64,000 nucleotides of DNA from Candidatus Vogelbacteria bacterium RIFOXYD1_FULL_46_19 (GCA_001824825.1 MHTK01000006.1:127842-191841), one strand, 5' to 3'; positions 29,668 through 46,229 are shown, numbered from the stretch's first letter. Made by a program: numbers and translations. The notes: generated by a model not told the origin, from the sequence alone.

Positions 29668-31353
29668 TTATGACTTGGTGACCCTGATAATTTCCGCTAG
29701 AGTAGTAATTCCCTGAAAAGCTTTTCTAAGCCCGTCGACCGCCATCGAACTACGGCCCTCGGCCCGCGCCGCTTGCTCGATAGTACCAGCAGAGGCTTTC
29801 TGAATGACCAAGCTTCGTAGTTCTTCATTCATTTCAAAAACTTCAAAAATTCCGATTCGGCCCTGATAGCCAGTCTGATTACAATCATCACATTTTCTTC
29901 CCCGATACAATCTAATATCAGTAACCGCCTTGCCACCAGACAGCTCGACGGCGGCCGCCAGTAACTCCGGATTTTGATTAATGACTAGTTGCTCTTCAGC
30001 TGGTAGCACATAACTCTCCCGACACTTATCACAAATCCGCCTAACCAAACGCTGGGCGATAACAATATTTAAGCTCGAGGCCACCAGAAATGGTTCAACC
30101 CCTAAATCTATTAAACGAGGAAAAGTAGTGGCCGCATCATTGGCGTGTAGAGTAGATAGCAGTAAGTGGCCGGTCATAGCCGCATTAACCGCAATATTAG
30201 CAGTTTCAGTGTCTCTAATTTCACCCACCATTATAATGTCCGGGTCTTGACGCACAATTGATCGTAAACCAGTGGAGAAAGTCACGTTCTTTTTCACATT
30301 CACTGGTATTTGTTGAATATGTTCGATATTATACTCCACTGGGTCTTCGATCGTCATTACATTAACTTCTGGACTGTTTAAAAGTTGCAATAAAGTATAG
30401 AGCGTCGTCGATTTACCGGAACCGGTCGGGCCGACTGAGAGAATCATACCATGGGGTTTTAAGATGGCTTTTTTGATCATCTCTTCATAAGCCGGCGAAT
30501 AGCCCAAATCCGACAAGTTCACTTTATGAGCCGATTCAGTGGTCAAGAGTCTCATGACCACATTTTCACCTCGCGTGGTGGGTACAACCGATACTCGGAC
30601 ATCAAACTTAATTTGATTCGCTGCGTATTCAAAACGACCGTCTTGCGTCGCGGCATGCTCGTCAGTCCGCAAGCGTGACATAATTTTAAGCCGAAAAATA
30701 ATTTTTTCGTGCAAAGGCTTCGGATAAGTCAAAATTTCATGTAAAATACCGTCGATTCGAAAGCGCACTGATGACGATTCTTCCAGTGGTTCAATGTGAA
30801 TATCTGAAGCGCCATTATCATAAGCGTACTCCATAACCAGATTAACCAACTCAATAATTCCCTCCTCACTAGTTTCCTGCTTCGTCAGACTTTGCACCAA
30901 TTGCTCGGCCCGCTCACGTCGGTCACTTTTATAACCCCTAAGGGCCGCCCCAATACTGCCGGCCGTAGTTAAAGCCACGTCGACGCGCTTGCCAGTTTTT
31001 TTCTCTAAGAGCTCAAAAAACTCATAATTATTAGGATTAGTGGTGGCCACCGCCACCCTCTCATCATCTTCGTTATAAACAACCACCTGCTGACTACTAG
31101 CTACTGCTTCCGGAATAATTTGCAATAAGTTTTTATCAATGACCATTTCGTGCAAGGACACAAATCTCAAACCTAAGCTATCGGCCAAAGTCTGACCTAA
31201 ATGGTCGTCAGAAATGTAACCATCTTTTACGAGTACCTCCAGCACCGACTGCTTAAGCTCGGTTGCTCTAGTTAGAGCTCGACCTAACTGTTCCTCAGTC
31301 AAGTGACCAGGTTTAACCAATAAAGAATTTAGTTGTTCGTTTGATACAATCAT
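29668..31353 (-). CDS. pilB: Type IV pilus assembly ATPase PilB (GspE family)
   Basis: Walker A GPTGSGKSTTL. C-terminal tetracysteine CDKC...CDDC. Confidence 0.9.
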   Translation of the reverse strand: MIVSNEQLNSLLVKPGHLTEEQLGRALTRATELKQSVLEVLVKDGYISDDHLGQTLADSLGLRFVSLHEMVIDKNLLQIIPEAVASSQQVVVYNEDDERVAVATTNPNNYEFFELLEKKTGKRVDVALTTAGSIGAALRGYKSDRRERAEQLVQSLTKQETSEEGIIELVNLVMEYAYDNGASDIHIEPLEESSSVRFRIDGILHEILTYPKPLHEKIIFRLKIMSRLRTDEHAATQDGRFEYAANQIKFDVRVSVVPTTRGENVVMRLLTTESAHKVNLSDLGYSPAYEEMIKKAILKPHGMILSVGPTGSGKSTTLYTLLQLLNSPEVNVMTIEDPVEYNIEHIQQIPVNVKKNVTFSTGLRSIVRQDPDIIMVGEIRDTETANIAVNAAMTGHLLLSTLHANDAATTFPRLIDLGVEPFLVASSLNIVIAQRLVRRICDKCRESYVLPAEEQLVINQNPELLAAAVELSGGKAVTDIRLYRGRKCDDCNQTGYQGRIGIFEVFEMNEELRSLVIQKASAGTIEQAARAEGRSSMAVDGLRKAFQGITTLAEIIRVTKS

Positions 31354-31365
31354 AACTAGTCGGCC

Positions 31366-31758
31366 CTAGCCGAGAATGGCTCTAATTTTTTGGACCACCG
31401 ACACCATCGATATATTAGCTTTAACCAAATAATCATTAACACCTTTTTGTTTGGCTTGCTCGATGTCACTTTCTTGACCCAAATTAGACAAAATAATAAT
31501 CGGGATATCTTTGCTGGCTGGATTGTTCTTCACCTCATCAATAACATCAAATCCTGTCTTTTTAGGCATAATCATATCCAAAATGATTAAATCAATGCTT
31601 TCGGTTTTAATTTTCTGAATAGCTTGCTCACCATCCACAGCGGCTATGGTTTTAAAATTTTCCTTTTCTAGCTTGTCGATAAGAACTCGTGACAAAAAAT
31701 CGTCGTCCTCGGCAACTAAGATGGTAAGCTTGTGGGGTTCTGATATAGCTGGGCTCAT
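31366..31758 (-). CDS. Single-domain response regulator (CheY-like receiver)
   Basis: ILVAEDDDF...LIILDMIMPKKTGF...IIILSNLG...K receiver motifs. No output domain. Confidence 0.85.
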   Translation of the reverse strand: MSPAISEPHKLTILVAEDDDFLSRVLIDKLEKENFKTIAAVDGEQAIQKIKTESIDLIILDMIMPKKTGFDVIDEVKNNPASKDIPIIILSNLGQESDIEQAKQKGVNDYLVKANISMVSVVQKIRAILG

Positions 31759-31780
31759 AAATTTAAATATTTTCTAGTTA

Positions 31781-33094
31781 TTATAGTTTAGCCGAGGCTA
31801 GGTGTCGATTGCCGGTGGCCGACTTAGTCCCTTTTTTAACCGGCAAAATCACGGTAAATTTGGTACCCTTGTCCTCTTCTGTTTCAAAGCTAATCCGGCC
31901 ACCAGCCGAATCAACAATCGATTTAACAATATACAAACCTAAGCCGGTACCATCAGTATCTTTATCAATAATATTGTGCCCTCTAAACATTTTCGTAAAC
32001 ACTTTCGACACTTCCTCTTTGGGAATACCGTAGCCGGTGTCACTAACTTCCAAGTGAAGTTGATTTTTTTTGATCAAGGCGGCAACTGTTACCTCACCAC
32101 CGCTCGGAGTATATTTGATAGCGTTTGATAACAAATTTTCCATTATCATTCGCCCGTAACGTGGGTCCATGTTTACCACTCCGATACTTGAACTGTATTT
32201 TTTAATCAAACTGATAGATTTTAATTTCAACTGATAGCTAAAATCAGCAACCGCTTCATCAAGTAACCCGGCCACATCGGTTAAGCGAGCGTCCACAATA
32301 AAAGTATCAAGCTCAATGCGTGATACTTCTAAAATAGAGTTGACCAAAGCAATCATTCGCTGGTTACTATCACTAATACGATGAAGATATTCAGCCTGCT
32401 CACTTTTTAGTTTACCCAAGTCGCCCGTCATCAAAGCTTCGGCGTACCAATTAATAGCTGACAAAGGAGTCCTAAGTTGATGGGAAACCAAGGAAATAAA
32501 CTCGTTTTTAGCTCGATCAATTTGTTTCTCCTTTTCAATATTACGGAAAACAATAATCGCTCCCAGTATCCGCTCCGCTGACACAATCGGCGATACTGAT
32601 ACTGCCGCCGCAAAAGGAGAACCGGTTTGACCCTTCATAATCCAAGCCTCGGAAAAAGTCTTTTTCCTATTTTTTATAGTAGCGGTCACTATTTCTTTGG
32701 TCTCGACACCAGAATCTGGATTAGAGAGTGATACTAGCTTTTCCCACAGTTGTCCGGCTTTTAACTTCTCATTTATATTCAACATTTTTTTGGCCGCTCC
32801 ATTTATTACCTGAATTCGTCCAGCCGTATCCACTACCACTAAGCCTTCCCCCATATTTTCTAAGATCACTCGGTTACGCAAGTTAGATACATGCAATAAT
32901 TTGGTCACAAACAAAAAGTTGGCCATCGCAAACGCCAAGAGCAAAAGTACCGACATCTGCATGGTGACCGTTTGCGAGAGAGCTTCACTGGAGAGCGGCC
33001 AACCCAAAAGTACAGCTAGTAAAACTGAACCGACCAAAATTACCGCTAGTGATAAAATCTTAACTAACGAAGTTTTGAGGTGCGATATTACCAT
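31781..33094 (-). CDS. Membrane sensor histidine kinase with PAS domain
   Basis: Two N-terminal TM helices. H-box HQLRTPLSAI. HATPase_c G-boxes (DTGYGIP, GTGLGLYIVK). Confidence 0.85.
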   Translation of the reverse strand: MVISHLKTSLVKILSLAVILVGSVLLAVLLGWPLSSEALSQTVTMQMSVLLLLAFAMANFLFVTKLLHVSNLRNRVILENMGEGLVVVDTAGRIQVINGAAKKMLNINEKLKAGQLWEKLVSLSNPDSGVETKEIVTATIKNRKKTFSEAWIMKGQTGSPFAAAVSVSPIVSAERILGAIIVFRNIEKEKQIDRAKNEFISLVSHQLRTPLSAINWYAEALMTGDLGKLKSEQAEYLHRISDSNQRMIALVNSILEVSRIELDTFIVDARLTDVAGLLDEAVADFSYQLKLKSISLIKKYSSSIGVVNMDPRYGRMIMENLLSNAIKYTPSGGEVTVAALIKKNQLHLEVSDTGYGIPKEEVSKVFTKMFRGHNIIDKDTDGTGLGLYIVKSIVDSAGGRISFETEEDKGTKFTVILPVKKGTKSATGNRHLASAKL

Positions 33095-35170: not shown

Positions 35171-36373
35171 ATGACTAAAAATTTAACTCTACTCGTTATT
35201 AGTGCCTTACTCTTATTCATCATTGTCATCACCGGTCCCACCGCCGAAGCTAAAGTCACCAACGACTCTGATTTGGAAGTAGCCGGCTGGGTTCCCTACT
35301 GGCGCCTAAGTGAAGGCTCTAAGAGTGCCAAAAGACAACTCAAAAAGTTGGACACTATTTACCCTTTTGTTTATTCCGTCACCACGGACGGGGAACTAAA
35401 AGATTTAGGTAATTTAAAAAATAAAGACTGGCAAAGACTGGCCAAAGCGGCTAAAACCAAACGAGTCGAAATCATCCCCACCGTTATGTGGTCTGGTGGG
35501 GCCGACATTCATCGCCTCTTAAGCGATCCGGAATTGCGCCAGAACCACATCAAAGCTATCACCAAGATGGTCAGAAAGGGTAAGTACGCCGGGGTGGATA
35601 TCGACTATGAAGGTAAGCAAGCGGCCACTAAAGACTATTTTTCACTTTTTTTAGCCGAGCTTAAAAGTGAATTAGGTCAAAAAAAATTAGTCTGCACCAT
35701 TGAAGCCCGCACCCCGCCCGCTTCCCTCTACCGTGTCCTACCCCCGGTCATCGCTTATGCCAATGATTACGAAGCTATCGGAGAGCACTGCGACGTGGTA
35801 CAAATTATGGCTTATGACCAGCAACGGGCCGATATCTTGCTAAATGATGAGAGAAAGGGTGCCCCCTATGCCCCCACGGCTGATGTGGATTGGGTGAGAA
35901 AAGTGGTAGAACTAACCACCGCTACCATTCCGGCCGAAAAAATTATGTTGGGCATCCCCACCTACGGAGCAGAATATGAAATTGTGGTTTCGCCCAACTG
36001 GTACCAGCGCTACAGTAAACTCTGGGCCCTCAATCCGGAATATGGCCTAGACACTGCCAAAAAATTCAAGACGGAACCGTCCCGTAATCAAGCCGGGGAA
36101 CTAAGTCTCTCCTATCAAGCTAACCCCACTCTCGCCCCTATCACTTCTCTACTCTCAGTACCTAAAAATACCCCCCGTGGTGAAGTGGCGACGGCTCAAG
36201 CTCTCTCCTACGCAAATTTAACCGGCCAAACTGTCACGGTCAATTATTTATCTTGGAGCGACTCGGGAGCCGTCAAAGCCAAAATTGATTTAGCTCGTGA
36301 GCTGGGTTTGCGCGGTGTCTCCTTGTTTAAAATAGACGGCGGTGAAGACAAAAAAATTTGGTCTCTGTTTTAA
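35171..36373 (+). CDS. Secreted glycoside hydrolase family 18-like protein
   Basis: Signal peptide. GH18 catalytic D-x-D-x-E motif (GVDIDYEG). Confidence 0.6.
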   Translation: MTKNLTLLVISALLLFIIVITGPTAEAKVTNDSDLEVAGWVPYWRLSEGSKSAKRQLKKLDTIYPFVYSVTTDGELKDLGNLKNKDWQRLAKAAKTKRVEIIPTVMWSGGADIHRLLSDPELRQNHIKAITKMVRKGKYAGVDIDYEGKQAATKDYFSLFLAELKSELGQKKLVCTIEARTPPASLYRVLPPVIAYANDYEAIGEHCDVVQIMAYDQQRADILLNDERKGAPYAPTADVDWVRKVVELTTATIPAEKIMLGIPTYGAEYEIVVSPNWYQRYSKLWALNPEYGLDTAKKFKTEPSRNQAGELSLSYQANPTLAPITSLLSVPKNTPRGEVATAQALSYANLTGQTVTVNYLSWSDSGAVKAKIDLARELGLRGVSLFKIDGGEDKKIWSLF

Positions 36374-36378
36374 ACCTC

Positions 36379-38292
36379 TTACTTTAACCCGACAAGTATT
36401 TCTTTAAGCGAAGCGGTAGCCACCCCAACCACTCGGTCAGCCCCGCCATAGTACAAATACAGTTTGTCTCCCCGAATAATCGAGCCACAAGGAAAGACCA
36501 CATTGGGTACTTCCCCTTCCTTTTCGTATGGCATTAGTGGTTCAAACAAAGGAGCAGCCGAGCGGGCTAAGATTTCAGTCGGATCATCTTTATCCAAGAG
36601 AGCGGCGCCTACTCGATAAGTATCCTGTTCATCAATACCGTGGTAAAACATCAGCCACCCAGCTTTCAGGAGATGGGGCGTACCCGCCAGTCCCACTCTT
36701 TTGCCATCCCACATCCCGCGGCGAGGTTCCAAAATTTCAAACGAGGTATCAACTTCACTCGGTGTAAAAAGTAGATCATCCACATAGTCACCGGTAATAT
36801 GATGATTAACTCGGTGAATTACCAAGTACCCGCGGGAGAACTTCTTAGGTAGTAAAATTCCGTCCTTATCGTCCGTACTTTTTGGTGTAATAATAACCGG
36901 CTCCGACCAAATAAAGCGTCGAGCGGCCAAATCTTTTTTACTAATATGAGAGATGGCGATGCGCGGACTATCAAACCCATTATAAGCCGTATAGCACATA
37001 AATATTTTCTGACCAATTAAAACCAGCCGAGGGTCTTCACAGCCATAAGGATTCTGACTGCCCGCCGGCTTAGACTCAAAATCGGCTCGGGGCCCGTACA
37101 CCGGCTGATCATGACGATAAGAAATATTCACCCCGTCCAAACTTTCAGCGTAACCAATGACCGAGGCCCGGCTATCATTTTGAGCGCGGTATAAAATTCT
37201 GACCGTTCCCTCCAGATCAAGAGCGGTTGGATTAAAAACATTCTTATTTTCCCAGCTACTTTTGGCGATGGGCGTCAAAATCGGATTACCAGACCATCGC
37301 TCAAATACTTTGGTTCGCTTCGACTCGCTCAACTCTTTTAGTAAACCATCAAGGGGCAAACTGGCCACACAGGTGGTGGTGTCAGCCGCCCCATAAAAAA
37401 TCTCCAATTGGTTTTTTTTAACCACCGCGCCGGTCGGAAAAGATACGTCCGAGACAAAACCAAACTTGGCGTAAACCTGGTCTGGAATAATGACCGGCCA
37501 ACGAGTACGACCGATAATTTGCCGTGGGTCCTTAAGGTCCAGCAAGGCGGCCTCGACCCCAAACACCCGCGCCGCTCCGGTATAATAGTTTTGAATATGA
37601 GAATAGATCACCAACCAGCCGTCTTTGGTTTTTACCGGAGGTGCTCCCACCTCCGTCAAATCGGCCTCACTACGGCGTAAAACCAACTCATGCTGTTCGA
37701 GTTCGTCATACCATTTCGCCCAACGGTCGTGATCCCACAAGTCCTCGATTTTATCAAAACTAGCCAAACCAATGCGGGCCGGTGGCGCATCCGTATTTAC
37801 CGTGACTAGGGCGTAATACTTTCCATTTATCTTTTCCGGCCACAACGCCATCGCTTTAGCATTAAAGGGTGTCACCAAATGCCTTTCCTCTATTGTTTTT
37901 AAATCTCGAGTCACCGCCACAGCCACCTTAATACTATCGGGCCCCAAATTGGCCGATGAGAGAGCGGTGTAAAAAATCAAATATCGTCCATCAATTTCCA
38001 CTATCCGCGGATCTTCACAACCATATTTTTCCCACTCCGCTTCCGGTCGAATGAGCGGCTGACGATCCGTAAAATCATACTTACCATTATTAGACGCTTT
38101 AGCGACACCAATTATCGACTGGTACAAATTGGGCGCCATTATTATGTCGGGATTAGAGATGGCCCGGTAGACCATAAAGAGTTCCTGTCCCCTCGCGATC
38201 GGGCAGCCGTTGCAGGCAGAAACATTTTCCCACTTGTGATTCTTTAGCGGGTGCAAAATCGGATTATGGTCGTTTTGTTTAACATTAAACAT
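36379..38292 (-). CDS. Tandem two-domain GH130-family glycoside phosphorylase-like protein (DUF377)
   Basis: Two copies of the GH130 hallmark G-C-E-D-P-R (YGCEDPRIVEIDGRYLIFYTA and YGCEDPRLVLIGQKIFMCYTAY). No signal peptide. Confidence 0.6.
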   Translation of the reverse strand: MFNVKQNDHNPILHPLKNHKWENVSACNGCPIARGQELFMVYRAISNPDIIMAPNLYQSIIGVAKASNNGKYDFTDRQPLIRPEAEWEKYGCEDPRIVEIDGRYLIFYTALSSANLGPDSIKVAVAVTRDLKTIEERHLVTPFNAKAMALWPEKINGKYYALVTVNTDAPPARIGLASFDKIEDLWDHDRWAKWYDELEQHELVLRRSEADLTEVGAPPVKTKDGWLVIYSHIQNYYTGAARVFGVEAALLDLKDPRQIIGRTRWPVIIPDQVYAKFGFVSDVSFPTGAVVKKNQLEIFYGAADTTTCVASLPLDGLLKELSESKRTKVFERWSGNPILTPIAKSSWENKNVFNPTALDLEGTVRILYRAQNDSRASVIGYAESLDGVNISYRHDQPVYGPRADFESKPAGSQNPYGCEDPRLVLIGQKIFMCYTAYNGFDSPRIAISHISKKDLAARRFIWSEPVIITPKSTDDKDGILLPKKFSRGYLVIHRVNHHITGDYVDDLLFTPSEVDTSFEILEPRRGMWDGKRVGLAGTPHLLKAGWLMFYHGIDEQDTYRVGAALLDKDDPTEILARSAAPLFEPLMPYEKEGEVPNVVFPCGSIIRGDKLYLYYGGADRVVGVATASLKEILVGLK

Positions 38293-38295
38293 AAT

Positions 38296-39468
38296 TTATT
38301 TATAAGCTAGTCGATTGATTTTTAATGGGGGCAAGTGTTCGTCAGATCGCAAGGAATTCATAAACTGCTCAAATGGCGCCGAGGCTGCACACACATATTT
38401 ATCCCCCCCACCGTAGTAGATAAATAAGGTTCCATCTTTGACCACCGCCCCACAAGGATAGACAACGCCGGGTTTCCAATCGTTTTCATACCATAAATCA
38501 GGCGAGAGCAGTGGCTCGCGCGAGCGGTACAAAACTCGCTCTGGTTGATTTAGATCAAGCAACATAGCCCCTAGGTGATACTGACCATCATTCTGATCAT
38601 CCACCCCGTGCGTGATGACTAGCCAGCCATACTTGGTCTTAAGTGGCACTGAACCAAAACTAATTTTTCGACTATCCCAACCAGATACTTGCGGGGCAAT
38701 GGCAAATTCCCCGGCCGGCCATTTATCCTCATCAAAACGCAAGTGATCCAAGTAATCAATTAGAATGTTCGGAAACACCCGCTGAAAAAAAACATAGCGA
38801 CCATTAATTTTTCCCGGAAAAAGACCACCGCTTTTGGCAATCACCCCGGGCTTGGTACACAAAACCGGTTTGGTCCACCGCCATTTTCGATTCAAAAAAT
38901 CTTCAACAGCTATTGAGCTTAAGGCAATACGCACCGACTCCCAACCACCGAAAGCCACATAGGTTAGAAAAAGCCTGTCCCCAATTTGGCAAATTTTTGG
39001 ATCTTCACAGCCGGCCCAGCCGCCACCGGAAGTATAAGTAGCCGGAGCAAAAGTCTTCGGCCCGGCGAGACTAGTACTTTCAAAACTCTCGCGAGGCCAG
39101 TAAACGGGATACGGCAACCGTTCTTCAAAATTCAAGCCATCACTGCTACAGGCGTAACCAATCGTCGACATACCATCACTACCGACAGCCCGGTATAACA
39201 AATGAACTTTACCGTCCAAGCAAATAGCGGCCGGATTTAGCACCCCTTGGGCTTCCCAACCGTAGCCGGTTGGCTCTAATAGTGGGTTAAGATTGGACCG
39301 CGTCACATAAGGTTCGACCCGCCCTGAAGCCGAACGGGCCTTTTTAAAAACCTTGAGTTTACCCGGCCTAAACCAGCTGTAAAAAAAATTTCTGATCCTT
39401 TTTAACAAAGCTCGTATCATTAATTTTTTTAAATAACAAGTAAAGACTGAGGTAGATACCGCCATCAA
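38296..39468 (-). CDS. GH130-family glycoside phosphorylase-like protein (single domain)
   Basis: GCEDPKICQIGDRLFLTYVAFGG. The true start is likely an internal Met. Confidence 0.6.
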   Translation of the reverse strand: MMAVSTSVFTCYLKKLMIRALLKRIRNFFYSWFRPGKLKVFKKARSASGRVEPYVTRSNLNPLLEPTGYGWEAQGVLNPAAICLDGKVHLLYRAVGSDGMSTIGYACSSDGLNFEERLPYPVYWPRESFESTSLAGPKTFAPATYTSGGGWAGCEDPKICQIGDRLFLTYVAFGGWESVRIALSSIAVEDFLNRKWRWTKPVLCTKPGVIAKSGGLFPGKINGRYVFFQRVFPNILIDYLDHLRFDEDKWPAGEFAIAPQVSGWDSRKISFGSVPLKTKYGWLVITHGVDDQNDGQYHLGAMLLDLNQPERVLYRSREPLLSPDLWYENDWKPGVVYPCGAVVKDGTLFIYYGGGDKYVCAASAPFEQFMNSLRSDEHLPPLKINRLAYK

Positions 39469-39836
39469 TCAAGGCGGCCATAATCGTCGGCAAAACGCTC
39501 GATATCGGACTCATCAAAGTCTCCAGTGGCCACCTCTATAATCACCAACTCCTCCTTTGAACTTGTGTTAGTCAAGCGATGTTTGATCCCGACTGGCACA
39601 AACACCGATTGCCCCTCTTTTAAAATCACCTCTCTCCCATCTACTTCCGCTAAACCTCTCCCAGCCACCCTAACCCAATTTTCTGCTCTTTTTTGATGTG
39701 ATTGCAGAGACAAGCGCGCCCCGGGATTGACGGTGATTTTTTTTATCACCACCTGAGTCCCGTCTGAGCTTATAAAAGAACCGAGCACAACAAAATTGCC
39801 CCAAGGTCGAACATCTTTTTCCATTTCTTTTTCCAT
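39465..39836 (-). CDS. Cupin-fold mannose-6-phosphate isomerase-like protein
   Basis: WGNFVVLG...VNPGARLSLQSHQKRAENWVRVAGRG...VPVGIKHRL is the type II PMI C-terminal cupin pattern. Confidence 0.55.
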   Translation of the reverse strand: MEKEMEKDVRPWGNFVVLGSFISSDGTQVVIKKITVNPGARLSLQSHQKRAENWVRVAGRGLAEVDGREVILKEGQSVFVPVGIKHRLTNTSSKEELVIIEVATGDFDESDIERFADDYGRLD

Positions 39837-39917
39837 TTCTTTATTGTAACGTTATTCTAGCTCAGCCTCAATCTAAACTTTTAAATAACCAAATTTAATA
39901 GCAAATAAGCACTCAGA

Positions 39918-40667
39918 TTATTTCGTTGGCTCAATATTAGCAATGAATTTTTTTATCAATTCGGCCGTCATGGCGGGATCGGTTACTGGATAACATTTAA
40001 CCCCGGCCTCGTAAGCTGAATAATCATTGCCCCCGGGAAACATCGCGTCCCCCACAAACACTGCCTCAGCTGGCTCGAGCCCTAGCCTCTCCAGTATTTT
40101 TTTTATACCAAAAGCTTTATTAAATCCTTTTTTAGAAATATCAATCGAAGTCATACCGCCAATACCAATTTCAAATTCCGGCAGTAATTCGAGCAATCGA
40201 GCTCTCATTTTTTTTCTTATTTCTCGGTCACTGTCATAATCACTTTTAAGATCAAGGGGGGCCGCTTGACCCAGGGCTGAATAGGTCATTTGACTGCCGC
40301 GGTCTTCGATCGCTTCCCCAAACAGCTCCCCAGCCGGCTCAACTATAACTTCGGCTAGAGCCGCTTTGATTTTGGTTTTATCCTCTGCCGTTAAATTATT
40401 ATTGTAAACATTCTGCCAGCCTTCATTATATTCATATAGAGAGCTACCACTGGCTGGCAGTAAATAAAGATTTTGGCGGAGTTCATCATTTAGCTCCAAC
40501 CGAGGAACAAACTGCGTCAAATATTGATCAATACCAGCCCCGGAGATGACCGCTACCTTGGCTACAGCCAGTAATCTGGCTACTAATTTGACCATCCCCA
40601 GCTCAATCACACTTTTACTCGGCGCCAAAGTGCCGTCTAAATCAAAAATGTGGAGTTTTATCATCAC
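39918..40667 (-). CDS. Eukaryotic-type phosphomannomutase (HAD superfamily, PMM/Sec53 family)
   Basis: HAD motif I FDLDGTL. C-terminal FVGDAMFPGGNDYSAYE matches PMM FFGDKTMPGGNDHEIF. Confidence 0.65.
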   Translation of the reverse strand: MMIKLHIFDLDGTLAPSKSVIELGMVKLVARLLAVAKVAVISGAGIDQYLTQFVPRLELNDELRQNLYLLPASGSSLYEYNEGWQNVYNNNLTAEDKTKIKAALAEVIVEPAGELFGEAIEDRGSQMTYSALGQAAPLDLKSDYDSDREIRKKMRARLLELLPEFEIGIGGMTSIDISKKGFNKAFGIKKILERLGLEPAEAVFVGDAMFPGGNDYSAYEAGVKCYPVTDPAMTAELIKKFIANIEPTK

Positions 40668-40831
40668 CCTATCATAACAAATTCAAACCCAACCGGCATT
40701 CCCATATTTTCTCTTAGTCCCACTTTGGCACTTGAGTCAACTTGATTATATAATAGATGAAATAGTTACCATCTTGGCGGCTTTGCCCCTTCTAGTCTTT
40801 TTTACTCTGATTATCGCTGACCGCCGGTAGT

Positions 40832-40978
40832 ATGATTGCCCCTCACAATGTGATTACCGCTTTAACCGTAGCAGAACTCGCTAGCGGTGACAGTAAAGTC
40901 ATTAAGGCTAATCCGCCACCGCTTTTAATTTATTTAGTTCTACTTAGTCTGGTCGGATTACTCATCTCTGCTATATAA
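40832..40978 (+). CDS. Possible 48-aa small membrane peptide in intergenic region
   Basis: Manual translation MIAPHNVITALTVAELASGDSKVIKANPPPLLIYLVLLSLVGLLISAI. No recognisable RBS. Weak. Confidence 0.15.
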   Translation: MIAPHNVITALTVAELASGDSKVIKANPPPLLIYLVLLSLVGLLISAI

Positions 40979-41014
40979 TGAGTCGGACGGCAATATTATG
41001 TTAAAATTTACTTT

Positions 41015-42016
41015 ATGAATATTACTTGCGTTGAAGTTCGAGAGGAAGAGAAAATTTTTTTTGAACAGGAATTACCTACCGCCAAGCTACTGGCTGAAAA
41101 ATTAGACAGCTCTATGTTGTCTACTATTAGAGACACGGAGATTTTATGCGTGTTCGTCGACTCACTGGTCACCAAAGAAGTGATTGATGCCTTACCCCAC
41201 TTACAGTTGATTACTACCCGTTCCACTGGCCTCGACCACGTCGATACCGCTTACGCGACCAGTAAGGGTATAACGGTCACCAATGTCCCCGGCTACGGTA
41301 AACGCTCGGTGGCGGAATTTGCTCTAGCTTTGCTTTTAACTTTATCGCGCAAGATTTTCGACGCCTATCACCAAGTCCGCTTCAATGGCGACTACAGCTT
41401 CAAACATCTGCGTGGCTTTGACCTTGGTGGTAAAACTCTCGGCATTATAGGTACCGGCCAAATTGGTCGCCACTTGGCTCAGATTGCTAGAGGTCTCGAG
41501 ATGACAGTCCTAGCTTACGATGTCCAGCCTGATCCAGCCATTGCCACATCTTTAGGCTTTACTTATGTCGATTTTGATACACTCCTCTCAGGAGCCGACA
41601 TCATTTCCCTCCACGTCCCCCTTCTGCCCGCCACTCGACATTTATTAAATCGGGACACTTTAGCCAAAACCAAACCCGGAGTTTACATCATCAACACCGC
41701 CCGCGGTGAATTGATTGATACCACCGCCTTAATTGAAGCTTTAAACAGCGGCCAAGTGGCGGGGGCCGGCCTAGATGTGCTCGAAGGTGAAAGTGAATTA
41801 AAAGATGAAGTTGAATTAATCTCTGGTGGCCAGCAAATGGCCGATGTCCAAGTAATGCTAGAAAATCACATCCTCACCGATATGCCCCAGGTCGTGGTGA
41901 CACCCCACATTGCTTTCTATTCTAAAGAGGCCGAACGCGAAATCGTCCAAACCAGTATCAGTAATATTAAGTCCTTTATGAAGGCTACCCCCACTAATAA
42001 AGCACAGGCTCTATGA
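41015..42016 (+). CDS. D-isomer-specific 2-hydroxyacid dehydrogenase (glycerate/hydroxypyruvate/D-lactate dehydrogenase family)
   Basis: NAD-binding GIIGTGQIGRHLA. Catalytic R...E...H pattern in the C-terminal half. Confidence 0.85.
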   Translation: MNITCVEVREEEKIFFEQELPTAKLLAEKLDSSMLSTIRDTEILCVFVDSLVTKEVIDALPHLQLITTRSTGLDHVDTAYATSKGITVTNVPGYGKRSVAEFALALLLTLSRKIFDAYHQVRFNGDYSFKHLRGFDLGGKTLGIIGTGQIGRHLAQIARGLEMTVLAYDVQPDPAIATSLGFTYVDFDTLLSGADIISLHVPLLPATRHLLNRDTLAKTKPGVYIINTARGELIDTTALIEALNSGQVAGAGLDVLEGESELKDEVELISGGQQMADVQVMLENHILTDMPQVVVTPHIAFYSKEAEREIVQTSISNIKSFMKATPTNKAQAL

Positions 42017-43287
42017 GTACCTCCATCATCAACCGCCACAACTTAGCCACCACCCCCTTGCGCGAGCAAGCCCTCAGTATTATCGAAGCAGGTCTTGAAG
42101 CTATTGATACCACCCGAGCTATTAATAGATCTATCAGTCTCGACTCAGACAATAATTTAATCGTGGCCGGCCAGACTTTTTCTCTGGCCAACAAAAAGCG
42201 TATTCAGGTTATCGGTTTTGGCAAAGCCTCTTGCTTGGCCGCTATGGCCTTGGAAAAAATTTTGGGTTCAAGCTTGCACTCCGGTGTCGTGATTGACGTA
42301 AAAAAAACGTCTTGTGAGCTCATTTACGCTTTTGAGGGCTCTCACCCCAAACCCACCATCGCCAATGTTAACGCTTCAGCTAAAATTGTGGAACTGGCCC
42401 AGTCGGTCGGTCCGGATGATTTGGTGATTGTCATTGTGTCCGGTGGTGGCTCGGCTCTTTTATGCTGGCCCTTATCCGAGTATGAGCAAAATATTATTCT
42501 CTACGAAAAGTTCCTTCAAGCTGGGGGCACCATCCAAGAACTAAACCTAGTGCGCAAACACTTATCCGGCTTAAAAGGCGGCGGTCTGGCCGCTATGTTG
42601 CATCCGGCCACGGTTATTGGTTTGGTTTTTTCCGATGTGCCCGGTGGACATATTTCCGATATTGCTTCTGGTCCCACCTTTTACGATGAGTCCACTGTGG
42701 ATGAGGCTAAGGCAATTTTACACAAGTACAATATTACCGATGAATTCACTTTGATCGAAACCCCAAAAGATCAGACTCTTTTCCAAGGCGTTCACAATTT
42801 TTCTCTAGTCACTAATGAACTAGCCTTAAAGGCAATGACCGATCGAGCTAAAGCTTTAGGCTTTACCGCCACCATTATTTCCCCCAAAATGTATGATTTT
42901 GCCGCCCCAACTCTGGAAACTTTTTGGCAAACCACGCCCCCTGGTGGGGCCTCGGTCGGTGGTGGTGAAATTCGGCTAGTGGTCTCTAAAAGTGGTGGCT
43001 CGGGCGGTCGCAACCTTTACCTGGCCAATGAAGCCTTGAGTCGCATTAAAGATGAAGATGAGCTATTTGTTTCTTTCGCTTCCGACGGTATCGACAACTG
43101 CCCAGCAGCCGGTGCCCTAGTAGACCATAAGACCCTAGCTGCTGCCCAAGCTTTAAACTTAGACGTAGCCGACTACCTTAGCCGTTTCGATAGCCAGGCC
43201 TTATTTGAGCAAACTGGCGACCTCATCATGACCGGGCCGACTGGCTCCAACGTGGCCGACTTGATGATGTATCTGCGAACGCAGTAA
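42013..43287 (+). CDS. Glycerate kinase (MOFRL family, glycerate 2-kinase type)
   Basis: IVSGGGSALL, LSGLKGGGLA, a DUF4147+MOFRL-like pattern. Start overlaps the upstream stop (ATGA). Confidence 0.7.
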   Translation: MSTSIINRHNLATTPLREQALSIIEAGLEAIDTTRAINRSISLDSDNNLIVAGQTFSLANKKRIQVIGFGKASCLAAMALEKILGSSLHSGVVIDVKKTSCELIYAFEGSHPKPTIANVNASAKIVELAQSVGPDDLVIVIVSGGGSALLCWPLSEYEQNIILYEKFLQAGGTIQELNLVRKHLSGLKGGGLAAMLHPATVIGLVFSDVPGGHISDIASGPTFYDESTVDEAKAILHKYNITDEFTLIETPKDQTLFQGVHNFSLVTNELALKAMTDRAKALGFTATIISPKMYDFAAPTLETFWQTTPPGGASVGGGEIRLVVSKSGGSGGRNLYLANEALSRIKDEDELFVSFASDGIDNCPAAGALVDHKTLAAAQALNLDVADYLSRFDSQALFEQTGDLIMTGPTGSNVADLMMYLRTQ

Positions 43288-43309: not shown

Positions 43310-44113
43310 ATGAAAAAAATCTCCAGTGCTCAAATTGTGGCCACTCTCGGACCGGCTTCCAGTGACCCTGTACTTTTAGCGAGAATGATCGACTCCGGTC
43401 TCGACGCAGTCCGCCTTAATTTTTCTTGGGGTACTTTAGACGAACACGCGGCTTACATTGAAGCTGTCCGCCAGCTGGCTCCCACGCTACCAATTATTGG
43501 TGATTTACCAGGTCCTCGAGTCCAACAGGGAGATGGTCATTCTTTTGATAACAACCAGCCGGTATTAACGGCTCGTGACCGGGACTTCATTACTTTTGCC
43601 GCCGAGCAGGGTCTAGACTACTTGGCCCTTTCTTTTATTACTAACGCCGGCGATATGGCCCAGGCTAAAGAATTGATCAGAGCGGCCGGCAGTCAGGCGC
43701 GCGTCATTGCTAAAATTGAACGAGCTGAGGCTTTATTAAACTTACCAGAAATTATAGCCGTCTCGGATGCAGTAATGGTGGCTCGAGGCGACTTAGGCGA
43801 TAATATTCCGGTCGAGACCTTGCCGTTTGTGACAGTGGAAATAATTGAGGCTACTCGAGCCGCCGGCAAACCCGTCATCACGGCGACGGAAATGCTATCA
43901 TCAATGGTTAACTCCCCACGGCCAACCCGGGCCGAAGTGACCGATATTGCTTACGCTATTACCAATGGCTCGGACGCCTTGATGCTTTCGGAAGAAACGG
44001 CTACCGGTCATTACCCTTTAGAAGCAATCACTATGATGGAAAAAATTATCATTGAAGCCGAGCACCGTAGCGCCGGTAAGCACGAAGCGGTCAACCGACT
44101 CACTCGGGTCTAA
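43310..44113 (+). CDS. Pyruvate-kinase-like TIM-barrel-only protein (lacks lid B domain and C-terminal domain; catalytic Lys substituted)
   Basis: Collinear with the A-domain of host pyk (IVATLGPAS, VRLNFSWG, MVARGDLG, GKPVITATEMLSSM). The approximately 100-aa B domain is replaced by 20 aa. No C domain. DLPGPK to DLPGPR and LQKMII to VTVEII. Confidence 0.7.
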   Translation: MKKISSAQIVATLGPASSDPVLLARMIDSGLDAVRLNFSWGTLDEHAAYIEAVRQLAPTLPIIGDLPGPRVQQGDGHSFDNNQPVLTARDRDFITFAAEQGLDYLALSFITNAGDMAQAKELIRAAGSQARVIAKIERAEALLNLPEIIAVSDAVMVARGDLGDNIPVETLPFVTVEIIEATRAAGKPVITATEMLSSMVNSPRPTRAEVTDIAYAITNGSDALMLSEETATGHYPLEAITMMEKIIIEAEHRSAGKHEAVNRLTRV

Positions 44114-44148: not shown

Positions 44149-45429
44149 TTAGAAACCCAGTTCACTCCGACTAGCGAAGGCCCCCTCTGACCCCAGCTCT
44201 TCTTCAATTCTAAGGAGTTGATTGTATTTAGCAGTGCGTTCGCCCCGGCACACTGAGCCGGTTTTAATTTGCCCACAGGCGAGACCCACCGCGAGATCCG
44301 CAATGGTCGTATCCTCAGTTTCGCCTGAGCGATGAGACATAATAGTTCGCCAGCCGGCGGCCTGAGCTGCTTTCACCACGGCCATCGTTTCAGTTAGGGT
44401 GCCGATTTGATTGGGTTTAATTAAAATCGCATTAGCGGTCTGACCTTCTATGGCTTTAGTCAAACGCTCCAAATTGGTGACCAATAAGTCGTCACCTACT
44501 ATTTGTATTTTTGACCCGAGCACCTTAGTCATCTGTCCGAAATTATCCCAATCATCTTCCGCTAAACCATCCTCAATTGAAACTATAGGGTACTTATTGA
44601 TCCAGGTTTGATACAACTCCATCATTTCAGACGCCTCAAGCGACCTGCCTTCCGATTTAAGTAGGTACTGCCCGTCTTGATAAAACTCGGTCGCTGCCAC
44701 GTCGAGAGCGAGCCCTACCTCCTCACCCGGCTTAAAACCAGCCTGACTGATTGCCTCCATTAAAAGCTCTAGCGCTACCTCATTGGTAGGTAAAATCGGA
44801 GCAAAACCACCTTCATCCCCCACGGTTGTATTAAGCCCCCGACCTTTTAGTATGTCTTTTAACGCTTGAAAAACCTCTACCCCCACCCGGAGAGCTTCCT
44901 GGTAGGTCGGCGCCCTCAGTGGCATAATCATAAACTCCTGTAAGTCGGTTGAATTACTAGCGTGCTGGCCCCCGTTTAAAATATTAATCATTGGTCGAGG
45001 CAAAAGTAGTTTAGTGGTCCCGGCCAGTTCTCCCACGTAGCGATACAGTGGCCAATTAGTCGCCGCGGCAGCCGCTTTGGCAAAGGACAAGGACACCGCC
45101 AAAATAGCGTTAGCCCCTAAGTGGCTTTTATCCGCTGTCCCGTCAAGTTCTATCAGTTTTTTATCTAAACTCTCCACCATCCAAGTCTCACCCACTAGCG
45201 CGGGCGCTATCACCTCATTAATATTTTCCACCACCTGCTTCACTCCCCGGCCCCGGTAACGCTCGCCACCATCTCTAAGCTCTACCGCTTCATGACTACC
45301 AGTGGACGCCCCCGACGGCACCGCTGCCCGCCCCCGACTTCCACCCTCCAGTGTCACATCTACCTCCACCGTCGGCTGGCCGCGCGAGTCCAAAATTTCC
45401 CGACCCTTGATTGAAATTATTTTAAACAA
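44149..45429 (-). CDS. eno: Enolase
   Basis: Full-length enolase with [33 protein letters not shown]. Confidence 0.95.
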
Positions 45430-45832: not shown

Positions 45833-46072
45833 TTAACGAAGTTTGTCCTCCGCCCGCCGAACCAGTTCCGCTAGGGGGACTTGGAGAACATTAGAAAACA
45901 CCATCAACGTTGTGAGAGACCCACACCCCGCCACTTCGTTATTGCTGACAGAGGCTTGGGTCAATCTGCATAATTGGGCCAATTGAACTTGGGTTAGGTT
46001 TTGAGCCTGACGTTCACTTCGAATTACCCGCCCCAAAGCCCTCTTAAGTTCTTTACCCTTTAACTTTTTCAT
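45833..46072 (-). CDS. XRE-family helix-turn-helix transcriptional regulator (79 aa)
   Basis: LTQVQLAQLCRLTQASVSNNE HTH pattern. Confidence 0.6.
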   Translation of the reverse strand: MKKLKGKELKRALGRVIRSERQAQNLTQVQLAQLCRLTQASVSNNEVAGCGSLTTLMVFSNVLQVPLAELVRRAEDKLR

Positions 46073-46229
46073 CCCAACCCTTCCTTTCCGCTCGATTTTT
46101 CTAATTATATTTATATCACATCTAGACTAATTTTCTAGCAACCAAGCTCCCTTCTCATTTTAAGTTAGAGGTATAAAAAAGGAGCCTGCCTATAGCAAGC
46201 TCCAAAAACCCTAGAGTATGTTTAACGTC

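Follow-up and report, generated by a model that had tools for sequence, protein, structure and literature searches.

A conserved four-gene GH130 operon of Patescibacteria that probably interconverts beta-1,2-manno-oligosaccharides and fructose-6-phosphate

Introduction

The closest described matches for the GH130 domains discussed here are Teth514_1788, a 1,2-beta-oligomannan phosphorylase, and Teth514_1789, a beta-1,2-mannobiose phosphorylase, both GH130_6 enzymes of Thermoanaerobacter sp. X-514 (PMC4264767; 9FJ8, 7FIP). Other systems with which the locus can be compared are the N-glycan pathway of Bacteroides thetaiotaomicron, represented by BT1033 and UhgbMP (GH130_2), the beta-1,2-mannosidases BT3780 and BACOVA_03624 (GH130_3; PMC4599007), and the Leishmania mannogen cycle with its GT108 enzymes MTP1-7 (6Q4W-6Q50; PMC10913872). 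Phosphomannomutases (PMMs) of the HAD type, to whose family a protein encoded beside the GH130 genes belongs, often act on glucose and mannose phosphates alike (PMC8808168).

Results

The features of the locus, which lies within a 64 kb window (the whole stretch of DNA that was analysed), are as follows.

35171..36373, plus strand: secreted GH18 (PF00704), adjoining the GH130 genes and convergent with them
36379..37314, minus strand: C-terminal GH130 domain, "C" (residues 327-637 of the tandem protein)
37315..38292, minus strand: N-terminal GH130 domain, "N" (residues 1-326 of the 637-aa tandem protein)
38296..39285, minus strand: catalytic propeller of the single GH130 protein, "S" (PF04041)
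39286..39465, minus strand: polybasic, amphipathic N-terminal extension of S, about 60 aa
39465..39836, minus strand: stand-alone 123-aa cupin of the type II mannose-6-phosphate isomerase (PMI) family (PF01050)
39918..40664, minus strand: HAD-IIB hexose-phosphate mutase, 248 aa from the ATG at 40664, first gene of the operon
40668..41014, strand not applicable: divergent intergenic region of 347 bp upstream of the operon, presumably containing its promoter

Five open reading frames were confirmed, at 35171-36373 (+), 36379-38292 (-), 38296-39468 (-), 39465-39836 (-) and 39918-40667 (-), and the products of all five score above Pfam gathering thresholds. The likely start codons of S and of the HAD protein are the ATGs at 39465 and 40664, correcting the frames 38296-39468 and 39918-40667 respectively. 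The four minus-strand genes, encoding the HAD-IIB mutase, the PMI-type cupin, S and the tandem N-C protein, are tightly packed, with the cupin TGA stop and the S ATG overlapping as TGATG and only 3 nt between S and N-C. No signal peptide was found on the GH130 proteins, and the four genes constitute one cytoplasmic operon that is kept across the ultra-small Patescibacteria (CPR). Within 40668..41014, promoter-like matches are not commoner than in shuffled sequence, and no Rfam match was found.

Synteny was counted in the neighbourhood of the tandem GH130 gene in 49 related genomes with sufficient flanking DNA. N-C is directly preceded by S at all 49 loci, the cupin is within 3 kb of the tandem gene at 33 and the HAD gene within 3 kb at 28; S, cupin and HAD are all present at 23/49, and roughly a third to a half of the loci lack the cupin and HAD genes nearby. 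Because S and N-C are syntenic at every locus and the cupin and HAD genes are usually there, the clustering is not a product of chance. Fusions are also found, including S-N-C fusion proteins (P0012-P0015) and, at one locus (L004), a HAD protein joined in frame with the S GH130. Relatives of the tandem protein are present in at least 597 GTDB species representatives, and the best 80 of these carry mostly Patescibacteria labels; a few are Omnitrophota, one bin is labelled Bacteroidetes and several bins are unclassified. The three GH130 paralogue classes (S, N and C) are ancient and each is conserved separately. An RfaE-domain-II-like sugar-1-phosphate nucleotidyltransferase is encoded in the operon at 13 of the 80 loci, some of them without the cupin and HAD genes, and none was found in this window.

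The original prediction correctly counted three GH130 domains, and Pfam GH130 matches the tandem protein with 300.6 bits in two stretches and the single protein (PF04041) with 137.5 bits. The proposed substrates, Man-beta-1,4-GlcNAc and Man-beta-1,4-Glc, are not supported by the signature residues. Using criteria taken from earlier work (PMC7660257, PMC4599007), we find in all three domains the Glu/Lys pair diagnostic of beta-1,2-mannoside specificity and in none the Tyr/Arg (beta-1,4) pair, with the Glu/Lys signature and proton donor kept in 81/81 C, 80-81/81 N and 62/62 S sequences. The closest sequence and structure matches of all three domains are Teth514_1788 and Teth514_1789, far above UhgbMP or BfMGP; for the tandem protein the scores are 203 bits for Teth514_1789, 77 for UhgbMP and 37 for BfMGP. 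The 450-bit cut-off of the NCBIfam beta-1,2-mannobiose phosphorylase equivalog is missed, at 397 and 195 bits.

A phosphate site of Arg and His, as predicted for GH130 phosphorylases, is present in this window's S and in C (81/81), whereas both residues are absent from N, a loss that extends across the family and that, for this one domain, counts against the original prediction. S contains all of the signature residues (R92, E154, D155, K211, R229, H286, D355), and its best PDB matches are 9FJ8 (Teth514_1788, 4e-45) and 7FIP (Teth514_1789, 7.5e-44); most S enzymes in relatives lack the phosphate-binding Arg, although it is retained here. In C, R369, E419, D420, K476, R494, H551 and D619 are each present in 81/81 sequences, and position 532 (R here) is always K or R (81/81). 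Residues 331-632 of C align with 9FJ8 (7e-53), the match to 7FIP is at 6e-59, and Foldseek TM-scores to these two structures are 0.87-0.89, the AlphaFold2 model of the 637-aa tandem protein having a pLDDT of 92.7 and a pTM of 0.89. S and C carry the canonical beta-1,2-mannoside phosphorylase signature, and beta-1,2-mannosides are their predicted substrates.

N retains R43, E93, D94, K146 and D304 (80-81/81 sequences), but T164 stands in place of the phosphate-binding Arg (T or S in 76/81) and S231 in place of the His (76/81), and the third basic position has L212 here and His in 64/81. Neither D168 nor E214 varies among 19 sequences (alignment A1), and residues 182-201 form a helical, Trp-rich insertion. 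As judged from its sequence, N has intact sugar subsites and proton-donor Asp but cannot be a standard phosphorylase, because the phosphate ligands are gone; it may hydrolyse, transfer or merely bind the same beta-1,2-mannoside.

The N-terminal extension of S, with 14 K/R and one D/E, probably serves to associate the protein with membranes or polyanions. Of 62 S-class homologues, 27 carry a transmembrane (TM)-like segment and 28 a polybasic tail, and 5 are short. In all 27 TM-type proteins K/R residues follow the TM segment (a mean of 4.4, versus 0.19 before it), which puts the catalytic domain in the cytoplasm.

Membership of the HAD protein in the PMM family, as predicted, was borne out by scores of 40.5 bits for PF03332 (eukaryotic PMM; threshold 22.4) and 67.7 bits for TIGR01484 (HAD-IIB), with other HAD models also matching. 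Its best PDB match, over the full length, is the Lactococcus lactis alpha-phosphoglucomutase (alpha-PGM) 4BND (E=1e-31), and matches to eukaryotic PMMs range from 1e-11 to 1e-7, every PDB match being either a PMM or the L. lactis alpha-PGM. The motifs D8-x-D10-G-T and GGND are kept in 41 operon-linked homologues, and the HAD protein shares with the L. lactis enzyme a Gly-Gln where eukaryotic PMMs have Gly-Arg. By sequence, we assign it to the eukaryotic-type PMM family, nearest to L. lactis alpha-PGM.

The cupin matches PF01050 with 84.7 bits (threshold 23.6), and its whole 123 aa align to the C-terminal PMI part of the TIGR01479 GMP/PMI model (358-467 of 467). Q45, H47, R50, E52, W54 and H86 are kept in 42 operon-linked homologues, and the conserved motifs are RPWG, LSLQxH..R.E.W, HR and DD.R..D.YGR; in both the cupin and its family consensus, Lys takes the place of the second His in the usual HxH. 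No close solved structure was found for the cupin and, to our knowledge, stand-alone PF01050 cupins are largely uncharacterised.

The GH18 protein (PF00704, 94.8 bits) has a Sec-type signal peptide, MTKNLTLLVISALLLFIIVITGPTAEA/KV, in agreement with its predicted secretion, and the motif D143-x-D145-x-E147. Its best structural matches are 4Q6T, YdhD (3CZ8) and YaaH/SleL (4S3K, 4S3J), followed by chitinases, and no endo-beta-N-acetylglucosaminidase structure matches at E<=0.01. We considered GH18 as an operon partner and rejected it, since the gene is convergent, on the opposite strand, has a homologue near the GH130 pair at only 1/49 loci, and is YdhD/YaaH-like. It is, on sequence grounds, best regarded as an unrelated secreted wall- or chitin-type hydrolase outside the conserved module.

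Discussion

We propose that this four-gene cytoplasmic operon probably interconverts beta-1,2-linked manno-oligosaccharides and fructose-6-phosphate. S and C would act as inverting phosphorylases, in the reversible reaction of beta-1,2-Man(n) and Pi to beta-1,2-Man(n-1) and alpha-mannose-1-phosphate, the HAD-IIB mutase would interconvert mannose-1-phosphate (Man-1-P) and mannose-6-phosphate (Man-6-P), and the cupin would interconvert Man-6-P and fructose-6-phosphate (Fru-6-P), with N hydrolysing, transferring or simply binding the same mannoside. A polybasic tail would keep S on the cytoplasmic side of the membrane, a task that falls to a transmembrane anchor in relatives. As all of the steps are reversible, the module could either drain or fill a mannoside pool. 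The original route from mannoside through Man-1-P and Man-6-P to Fru-6-P is upheld by the operon structure, translational coupling, synteny and fusions, to which the observed family memberships and signature residues can be added; from these we infer which substrates are used, in which direction the flux runs and what N does. Weighing against the proposal are the missed equivalog cut-off, the failure to find a close solved structure for the cupin, and the loci that lack nearby cupin and HAD genes.

It had been suggested that the locus resembles the Bacteroides N-glycan phosphorylase pathway, with a secreted GH18 endo-N-acetylglucosaminidase freeing the chitobiose core, GH130 enzymes acting on Man-beta-1,4-GlcNAc or Man-beta-1,4-Glc in the manner of BT1033, and PMM and PMI leading to glycolysis. 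Every named family is indeed present, side by side, and the downstream PMM/PMI logic equals that of the Bacteroides pathway (PMC4264767). However, the beta-1,2 rather than the beta-1,4 pair in three domains, the low scores of the tandem protein for UhgbMP and BfMGP, and a GH18 that is convergent, rarely syntenic and of the wrong type make this very improbable, and the signature residues and synteny largely refute it. No exo-glycosidase was found alongside the module, and neither the operon, nor its conserved surroundings at 80 loci, nor the rest of the 64 kb window encodes a sugar transporter. Scavenging of host glycans is a possibility to which none of the results points.

No beta-1,2-mannoside source was found for the module, and we lean slightly, on a near-even balance, towards a cell-made reserve or envelope glycan rather than an imported one. 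Catabolic salvage of environmental or host beta-1,2-manno-oligosaccharides, through an unlinked importer, ATP-free phosphorolysis and fermentation via Fru-6-P, would be a minimal version of Teth514_1785-1796. In favour of this, those GH130 phosphorylases that have been characterised serve catabolism or salvage (PMC4264767), the module has two canonical phosphorylase domains, like the Teth514_1788/1789 pair, PMM and PMI point to glycolysis, and a membrane tether could set S beside an importer. We nonetheless consider salvage slightly the less likely source, as the 80 loci and the 64 kb window show no linked transporter, solute-binding protein or secreted mannanase, hundreds of species keep the operon despite the rarity of beta-1,2-mannans in nature (PMC4264767), and the N domain without a phosphate site and the Arg loss in most S enzymes are left unexplained. 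These last features fit somewhat better with an endogenous cycle, which we advance tentatively. The beta-1,2-mannoside would then be both built and mobilised by the cell itself, as a mannogen-like reserve or as an envelope glycan close to the membrane, and the three GH130 paralogues would share out priming or synthesis, trimming and phosphorolysis in the way that the Leishmania MTP paralogues do. Consistent with this are the reversible, cytoplasmic steps, the separate conservation of the three classes, the loss from most relatives' S of an Arg that is a determinant of phosphorylase activity (PMC12814180), the membrane tethering of S, the lack of linked import machinery, the nucleotidyltransferase in 13/80 operons, including loci without cupin and HAD, and the measurable GDP-Man transferase activity of beta-1,2 GH130 phosphorylases. 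Against the cycle, the authors reporting that activity considered it possibly irrelevant physiologically (PMC12814180), cellular Pi favours phosphorolysis, this window has a full phosphorylase site in S and lacks the nucleotidyltransferase, and no report of beta-1,2-mannan in any Patescibacterium was found in the literature.

A further reading, which we regard as improbable, is that the HAD protein is a general alpha-phosphoglucomutase, the cupin is not a PMI, and Man-1-P from GH130 is directed to nucleotide-sugar synthesis for glycosylation and not to glycolysis. Counting against our proposed pathway and for this reading, the HAD protein's closest characterised relative goes by the name of alpha-phosphoglucomutase rather than PMM, and has the same Gly-Gln; the Thermoanaerobacter cluster pairs GH130 enzymes with a Man-1-P guanylyltransferase, and the nucleotidyltransferase of some operons points the same way. 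Against it, the cupin is 60 bits above the PF01050 threshold with its Gln/His/Glu/His set kept, the GH130 product is the likely substrate of the mutase, given the HAD-S fusion and the tight synteny, and the dual use of glucose and mannose phosphates is common among HAD-type PMMs.

Among known systems, GH18 resembles the peptidoglycan-type Bacillus YdhD and YaaH (SleL), among its best structural-database matches, in its catalytic DxDxE, but lacks their LysM domains and has a Sec signal peptide. The cupin aligns throughout with the type II PMI domain of AlgA, ManC and XanB (PF01050, TIGR01479) and keeps its motifs, although it stands alone without a nucleotidyltransferase domain and has Lys for the second His of HxH. 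The HAD protein shares the HAD-IIB fold, the DxDGT nucleophile motif and GGND with L. lactis PgmH (4BND) and with PMM1, PMM2 and Sec53 (PF03332), and sides with PgmH in having Gly-Gln where PMM2 has Gly-Arg141; unlike these enzymes, it is operon-linked with GH130, and fused to it in one relative. N is like BT3780 and BACOVA_03624 in keeping the proton-donor Asp and Glu/Lys without basic phosphate ligands. In BT3780 the basic residues become Glu227 and Glu268, whereas N has Thr/Ser, Ser and His/Leu, with the conserved acids D168 and E214 nearby; N is far nearer the phosphorylases (129 bits) than BT3780 (42 bits), and some GH130_3 members are secreted, whereas N has no signal peptide. With BT1033 and UhgbMP the module has in common the GH130 fold, inverting phosphorolysis and the Man-1-P to Man-6-P to Fru-6-P logic, but similarity is much weaker, Glu/Lys replaces Tyr/Arg, and there is no polysaccharide-utilisation locus, transporter, exo-glycosidase or syntenic GH18 of the endo-N-acetylglucosaminidase type.

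Teth514_1788 and Teth514_1789 are likewise two adjacent cytoplasmic phosphorylases giving Man-1-P, and all three domains share with them the catalytic Asp and the Glu/Lys +1 pair, to which S and C add the Arg/His phosphate site. Identity is about 35-44% over aligned columns, under the equivalog cut-off; the tandem enzyme with an N-terminal half lacking the phosphate site and the polybasic or transmembrane extension of S are differences, and the partners here are the HAD mutase and cupin PMI, while in the Thermoanaerobacter cluster they are an ABC transporter, GH5, the Man-1-P guanylyltransferase and GT4. The Leishmania GT108 enzymes gave no phmmer match and their structural likeness is distant (TM 0.62-0.68, ranks 36-42). 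The two nevertheless have in common a five-bladed propeller with a similar active site, a beta-1,2-mannoside polymer (putative for this module), a cytoplasmic cycle reversible via Man-1-P, and paralogues that differ at the phosphate-binding Arg, which in the MTPs divide transferase and phosphorylase roles.

Organization of the GH130 operon

All five open reading frames named in the original prediction are present at the following coordinates, and each was assigned to a family by Pfam.

Pfam assignments of the operon genes and the adjacent GH18 gene
35171-36373 (+): GH18, 94.8 bits
36379-38292 (-): tandem GH130, PF04041, 300.6 bits in two stretches (threshold 26)
38296-39468 (-): single GH130, PF04041, 137.5 bits (threshold 26)
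39465-39836 (-): mannose-6-phosphate isomerase (PMI) C-terminal cupin, PF01050, 84.7 bits (threshold 23.6)
39918-40667 (-): eukaryotic-type phosphomannomutase (PMM), PF03332 plus HAD models, 40.5 bits (threshold 22.4)

We refer to the single GH130 enzyme as S, and to the two domains of the 637-residue tandem protein as N (residues 1-326) and C (residues 327-637). The four minus-strand genes are tightly packed, with 81 nt between the HAD and cupin genes, an overlap of the cupin TGA stop with the ATG of S (TGATG, 39467-39463), and 3 nt between the end of S and the start of the tandem gene. GH18 is on the opposite strand and convergent with the end of the operon, the two reading frames ending 5 nt apart. 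The HAD protein most likely starts at the ATG at 40664, giving 248 aa, a length that agrees with the gene callers. Promoter and terminator pattern matches near the operon are no commoner than in shuffled sequence and we claim no transcript boundaries; the sole match in an Rfam gathering-threshold scan of the window is a tRNA gene (53061-53133), with none near the operon.

The nearest genomes are Patescibacteria MAGs, and an identical tandem GH130 protein with the same neighbouring genes is present in a 97.7-kb JGI metagenome contig and two other assemblies. The cupin (39465-39836, -) is called as 135 aa by JGI, apparently by reading through the TGA at 39467-39465, and as 119 aa in the ENA and Logan calls. 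Because all other genes have the same length in both call sets, start-codon choice aside, the longer version seems to be an artefact of gene calling rather than a sign of stop-codon recoding.

S, N and C carry a beta-1,2-mannoside signature

An AlphaFold2 model of the tandem protein (pLDDT 92.7, pTM 0.89) has the five-bladed beta-propeller fold, and Foldseek places it closest to Teth514_1788 and Teth514_1789 (TM-scores 0.87-0.89). These Thermoanaerobacter enzymes, a 1,2-beta-oligomannan phosphorylase (9FJ8) and a beta-1,2-mannobiose phosphorylase (7FIP) respectively, are also the best solved relatives of the tandem protein, of its N half alone, and of S. The tandem protein scores 203 bits against 7FIP and 183 against 9FJ8, compared with 77 and 37 bits against the beta-1,4 enzymes UhgbMP (4UDG) and BfMGP (3WAS). 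The best-matching NCBIfam model for the GH130 proteins is the beta-1,2-mannobiose phosphorylase equivalog NF052550, though both the tandem protein (397.3 bits over two stretches) and S (194.7 bits) fall below its cut-off of 450 and so below equivalog level. As to family GT108, phmmer gave no match to 6Q4W-6Q50, and a distant fold match alone was found (E ~1e-9, TM 0.62-0.68).

In GH130 enzymes the linkage specificity follows a residue pair, Glu/Lys for beta-1,2, Tyr/Arg for beta-1,4 and Glu/Arg for beta-1,3, and phosphorylases carry a phosphate-binding Arg and His that hydrolases lack (PMC7660257, PMC4599007). The three domains of the window were put into one alignment with their homologues (80 tandem, 61 single) and with four reference enzymes, in which we scored the proton donor (D104 in UhgbMP numbering), the phosphate ligands (R168, H231), and the specificity pair (Y103/R150). 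The proton-donor Asp is present as D155 in S (62/62), D94 in N (80/81), and D420 in C (81/81), and it is accompanied by an adjacent Glu and by Lys at the R150 position in all 62 S, 81 N and 81 C sequences. Together with the +1 Arg and a C-terminal Asp, these positions are kept nearly without exception in all three domain classes, and because of this S, N and C are, judged by their signatures, GH130 enzymes of the beta-1,2-mannoside type (as in GH130_4 and GH130_6) and not of the N-glycan or mannosyl-glucose type. The substrates of the original prediction, Man-beta-1,4-GlcNAc and Man-beta-1,4-Glc, are not supported, given the Teth514 enzymes as best matches and Glu/Lys in all three domains, in place of the Tyr/Arg pair (UhgbMP Y103/R150) of the beta-1,4 subfamilies GH130_1 and GH130_2. 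In a neighbour-joining tree S, N and C form separate clades, and the Thermoanaerobacter sequences cluster with S and C.

The phosphate site is missing from the N domain

In the C domain, R494 and H551 are each conserved in 81/81 sequences and a third basic residue is present, and the S enzyme of the window likewise has R229, H286 and R266/K267. As in other GH130 phosphorylases, S and the tandem protein lack a signal peptide. The Arg of S is mostly Ser, Asn or Ala in its relatives and is found in just 4 of 62 sequences, the window's included; the window's S is a basal, canonical member of its class. N has T164 at the Arg position (Thr/Ser in 76/81), S231 at the His position (76/81, His next), and L212 at the third basic position, equivalent to Uhgb_MS R242 (His in 64/81), and pairwise alignments to Lin0857 and Teth514_1788 concur that its phosphate ligands are missing. 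The original proposal of three phosphorylase domains thus stands for S (R229/H286) and C (R494/H551), where the phosphate-binding Arg and His are in place, and falls for N (T164/S231).

N retains the sugar subsites and acid catalyst but cannot bind phosphate in the standard mode, and it may act as a hydrolase or a transferase or serve only for binding. In the GH130_3 beta-1,2-mannosidase BT3780 the basic phosphate ligands are replaced by the catalytic-base residues E227 and E268 (PMC4599007). N also lacks the basic ligands, and its D168 and E214, which are invariant in an alignment of 19 sequences (A1), are candidate counterparts of E227 and E268 by their spacing, the match between the two proteins being weak (42 bits). 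An insertion specific to N (residues 182-201) is helical and Trp-rich.

Partner enzymes of the operon

The HAD protein belongs to NCBIfam class HAD-IIB (TIGR01484, 67.7 bits, threshold 41.8), and its conserved DxDGT and GGND motifs are intact, including D8 and D10. Its best PDB match, over the full length, is the Lactococcus lactis alpha-phosphoglucomutase 4BND (E=1e-31), which we take to be a bacterial member of the eukaryotic-type PMM family, followed by eukaryotic and protozoan PMMs at 1e-11 to 1e-7. All PDB matches at E<0.001 are PMMs or the L. lactis enzyme, and with the PF03332 threshold also passed, the placement of the HAD protein within the PMM family was correct. A mutase acting on Man-1-P is plausible, since HAD-type PMMs commonly accept both mannose and glucose phosphates (PMC8808168), and the operon context and a HAD-GH130 fusion argue for it.

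The cupin is of the type II PMI family and matches, along its whole length, the PMI part of bifunctional GMP/PMI proteins (NCBIfam). A PDB search returned no close solved structure for it. Q45, H47, E52 and H86 are conserved across 42 operon-linked homologues and, by their likeness to PMI zinc ligands, are putative metal ligands.

Distribution, synteny and gene fusions

The tandem GH130 architecture is very common (5,855 proteins at E<=1e-10), and 116 of the 120 proteins among the matches listed are 630-651 aa long. Within GTDB species representatives, at least 597 stretches (among 600 matches listed) encode a relative, and the best 80 of these carry mostly Patescibacteria labels; the others are a few Omnitrophota, several bins without classification, and one labelled Bacteroidetes. 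Synteny was counted in those 49 loci whose flanks reach 3 kb or more on both sides of the tandem gene.

Genes near the tandem GH130 gene in 49 related loci
Single GH130, immediately upstream on the same strand: 49/49
Cupin, within 3 kb: 33/49
HAD, within 3 kb on either side: 28/49
Single GH130, cupin and HAD together: 23/49
GH18 homologue nearby: 1/49

Several of these genes also occur fused. There are S-N-C fusion proteins of 971-1110 aa, and in the closest relative (locus L004, tandem protein 64% identical), which has no detectable cupin, a single 636-aa reading frame (8079-9989, +) encodes HAD (aa 5-254) followed by S (aa 259-634). The S-N-C and HAD-S fusions confirm the functional coupling predicted for the operon genes, and with the synteny and the operon structure they support the originally proposed pathway downstream of Man-1-P.

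Clustering of all flanking reading frames in the 80 related loci revealed no recurrent sugar transporter or secreted glycanase; the recurrent neighbours are housekeeping genes and a DrrA-type ABC ATPase only. There is likewise no sugar transporter among the window genes with Pfam hits examined. The analogy to Bacteroides glycan loci finds no support here, as the co-localised SusC/D or ABC transporter and exo-glycosidases of such loci were sought and found neither in the operon, nor in the 80 related loci, nor among the genes examined in the 64-kb window.

A nucleotidyltransferase gene of 150-180 aa accompanies 13 of the 80 operons (L019, L020, L025-L027, L031, L033, L042, L047, L068, L074, L079 and L082), on the operon strand and mostly directly beside HAD or S; four of the 13 loci have neither cupin nor HAD. 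The product is cytidylyltransferase-like (PF01467), with RfaE domain II, D-glycero-beta-D-manno-heptose-1-phosphate adenylyltransferase, as its best NCBIfam match (79 bits), and it suggests that Man-1-P may be connected to a nucleotide sugar. The gene was sought in the window and is absent.

S is predicted to be tethered to the membrane

The S enzyme of the window has an extension of ~60 aa ahead of the propeller (39286-39465, -) that is polybasic and amphipathic, with 14 K/R and 1 D/E, and the tandem proteins have none. Among 62 S homologues the extensions are transmembrane-like in 27, polybasic (20-50% K/R) in 28, and short in 5, their exact lengths being uncertain, as starts were set at the most upstream in-frame start codon. 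In 27/27 of the transmembrane type, positive charges follow the hydrophobic segment (mean 4.4, vs 0.19 before it), which predicts an N-out/C-in orientation and a catalytic domain of S that is cytoplasmic and membrane-tethered. A survey of GH130 reported signal peptides only in hydrolase groups and treated phosphorylases as cytoplasmic (PMC7660257). In the literature examined, a GH130 tethered to the membrane is nowhere mentioned.

GH18 and other genes in the window

GH18 carries a signal peptide, and its DxDxE motif is intact. Among solved structures it is closest to 4Q6T, YdhD and YaaH/SleL, enzymes of the peptidoglycan and chitin type, and then to chitinases. All 47 PDB matches with E<=0.01 belong to the YdhD, YaaH/SleL, chitinase or chi-lectin types, with no endo-beta-N-acetylglucosaminidase among them, and the GH18 of a Microgenomates genome has also been termed a peptidoglycan hydrolase (PMC7143001). 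Because it is on the opposite strand and syntenic in only 1/49 loci, we treat GH18 as an unrelated neighbour of the operon; with no endo-N-acetylglucosaminidase match at that threshold either, its supposed role in releasing the chitobiose core of N-glycans is not supported. GH18 is flanked by a DEAD-box helicase gene, beyond which lies a type IV pilus or T2SS-like cluster (24562-33094, -) encoding PilM, N-methyl pilins, T2SSF, and a PilB-like T2SSE with MshEN, and adjoining a response regulator and a PAS histidine kinase.

A mini pyruvate-kinase-like protein of 267 aa (43310-44113, +) matches the PK barrel in two stretches, the better aligning residues 83-240 with profile positions 171-328 of 328, and has no PK_C domain; a full-length pyruvate kinase (472 aa) is encoded elsewhere in the window. 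It adjoins genes for glycerate 2-kinase (DUF4147/MOFRL), D-2-hydroxyacid dehydrogenase, and enolase, and was noted together with reading frames at 41015-43287 (+), 44149-45429 (-) and 11666-13084 (-). Locus L027 has homologues of these same four genes 6-10 kb from its GH130 operon, that of the dehydrogenase matching only in part. A link between these genes and the operon, for instance through mannosylglycerate metabolism, was considered and rejected as unsupported; they lie on one locus with the GH130 pair in only 1-2 of 80 loci, at least 6 kb away.

Between enolase and the tRNA gene (53061-53133, -) is a run of about a dozen small reading frames (45833-52459, -), mostly without Pfam hits and with one XRE-type HTH, which may be an integrated element. 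Strand asymmetry is strong and uniform over the window, with most genes on the minus strand and GC skew negative in all 2-kb bins (-0.06 to -0.21), and a similar asymmetry is reported for a Microgenomates genome (PMC7143001).

A proposed beta-1,2-mannoside module and the source of its substrate

The best-supported reading of the families, signatures, synteny and fusions is a reversible cytoplasmic module, for which we infer the substrates, the direction of flux, and the role of N. S and C would phosphorolyse beta-1,2-mannosides to alpha-Man-1-P, the HAD mutase would convert this to Man-6-P, and the cupin would yield Fru-6-P.

The mannoside could come from outside the cell or be made within it. 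Salvage of imported oligosaccharides would match the working of known GH130 clusters (PMC4264767), yet with a linked transporter missing and no plausible abundant substrate, we regard it as rather unlikely. The lack of linked import machinery would fit a beta-1,2-mannoside produced by the cell itself, as a reserve or an envelope glycan, as would the three specialised paralogues, the erosion of phosphate sites in two of them, the membrane tether of S, and the RfaE-domain-II-like sugar-1-phosphate nucleotidyltransferase in 13/80 operons. A GDP-Man transferase side-activity is reported for beta-1,2 GH130 enzymes, although the same authors doubt its relevance in cells (PMC12814180), and the literature searched contains no report of such a polymer from these bacteria; production by the cell is a possibility that we hold with low confidence, about as likely as salvage.

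In its fuller form, the proposal of an endogenous mannoside is that in Patescibacteria, as well as in some Omnitrophota, the cell both produces and recycles a beta-1,2-mannoside, either a mannogen-like reserve or a membrane-proximal envelope glycan, and this we put forward as speculation with low confidence. Three anciently diverged GH130 paralogues would divide the work: the tethered S, with its Arg lost in most lineages, as a possible transferase, N as the domain without a phosphate site, and C as the canonical phosphorylase. The HAD mutase and mini-cupin PMI would couple these to central metabolism.

The Patescibacteria (Candidate Phyla Radiation) account for a large share of bacterial diversity, and most ideas about their physiology are guesses drawn from sparse gene sets. 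The operon is one of few multi-gene sugar modules retained across hundreds of their species, and its enzymes have hitherto gone unremarked under the generic glycosidase labels "GH130" or "DUF377". A beta-1,2-mannoside target, in place of plant mannan or N-glycans, changes the prediction of what these bacteria eat or store; should the cell make the mannoside itself, bacteria would have a new reserve or envelope polymer, and the full recycling proposal, if true, would be the first proposed energy or carbon store in these ultra-small symbionts. For enzymology, the operon offers a natural tandem that joins a phosphorylase covalently to a sister domain lacking the phosphate site, a GH130 with a predicted membrane tether, and natural HAD-GH130 and triple-GH130 fusions.

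In the literature searched, the Patescibacteria operon, the tandem with its phosphate-site-less half, the tethered S, and the HAD and cupin partners have not previously been described. GH130-GH130 tandems were merely counted, four in CAZy in 2018, without analysis (PMC7660257). Searches on GH130 in the CPR, bacterial mannogen, and bacterial beta-1,2-mannan storage returned nothing beyond one Microgenomates genome for which two intracellular GH130 enzymes and a "peptidoglycan hydrolase" of family GH18 are mentioned in passing (PMC7143001). The predicted chemistry is the one known from the Thermoanaerobacter beta-1,2-mannoside phosphorylases, and a cycle of synthesis and recycling would parallel, in bacteria, the mannogen cycle of Leishmania, with GH130 enzymes in place of GT108.
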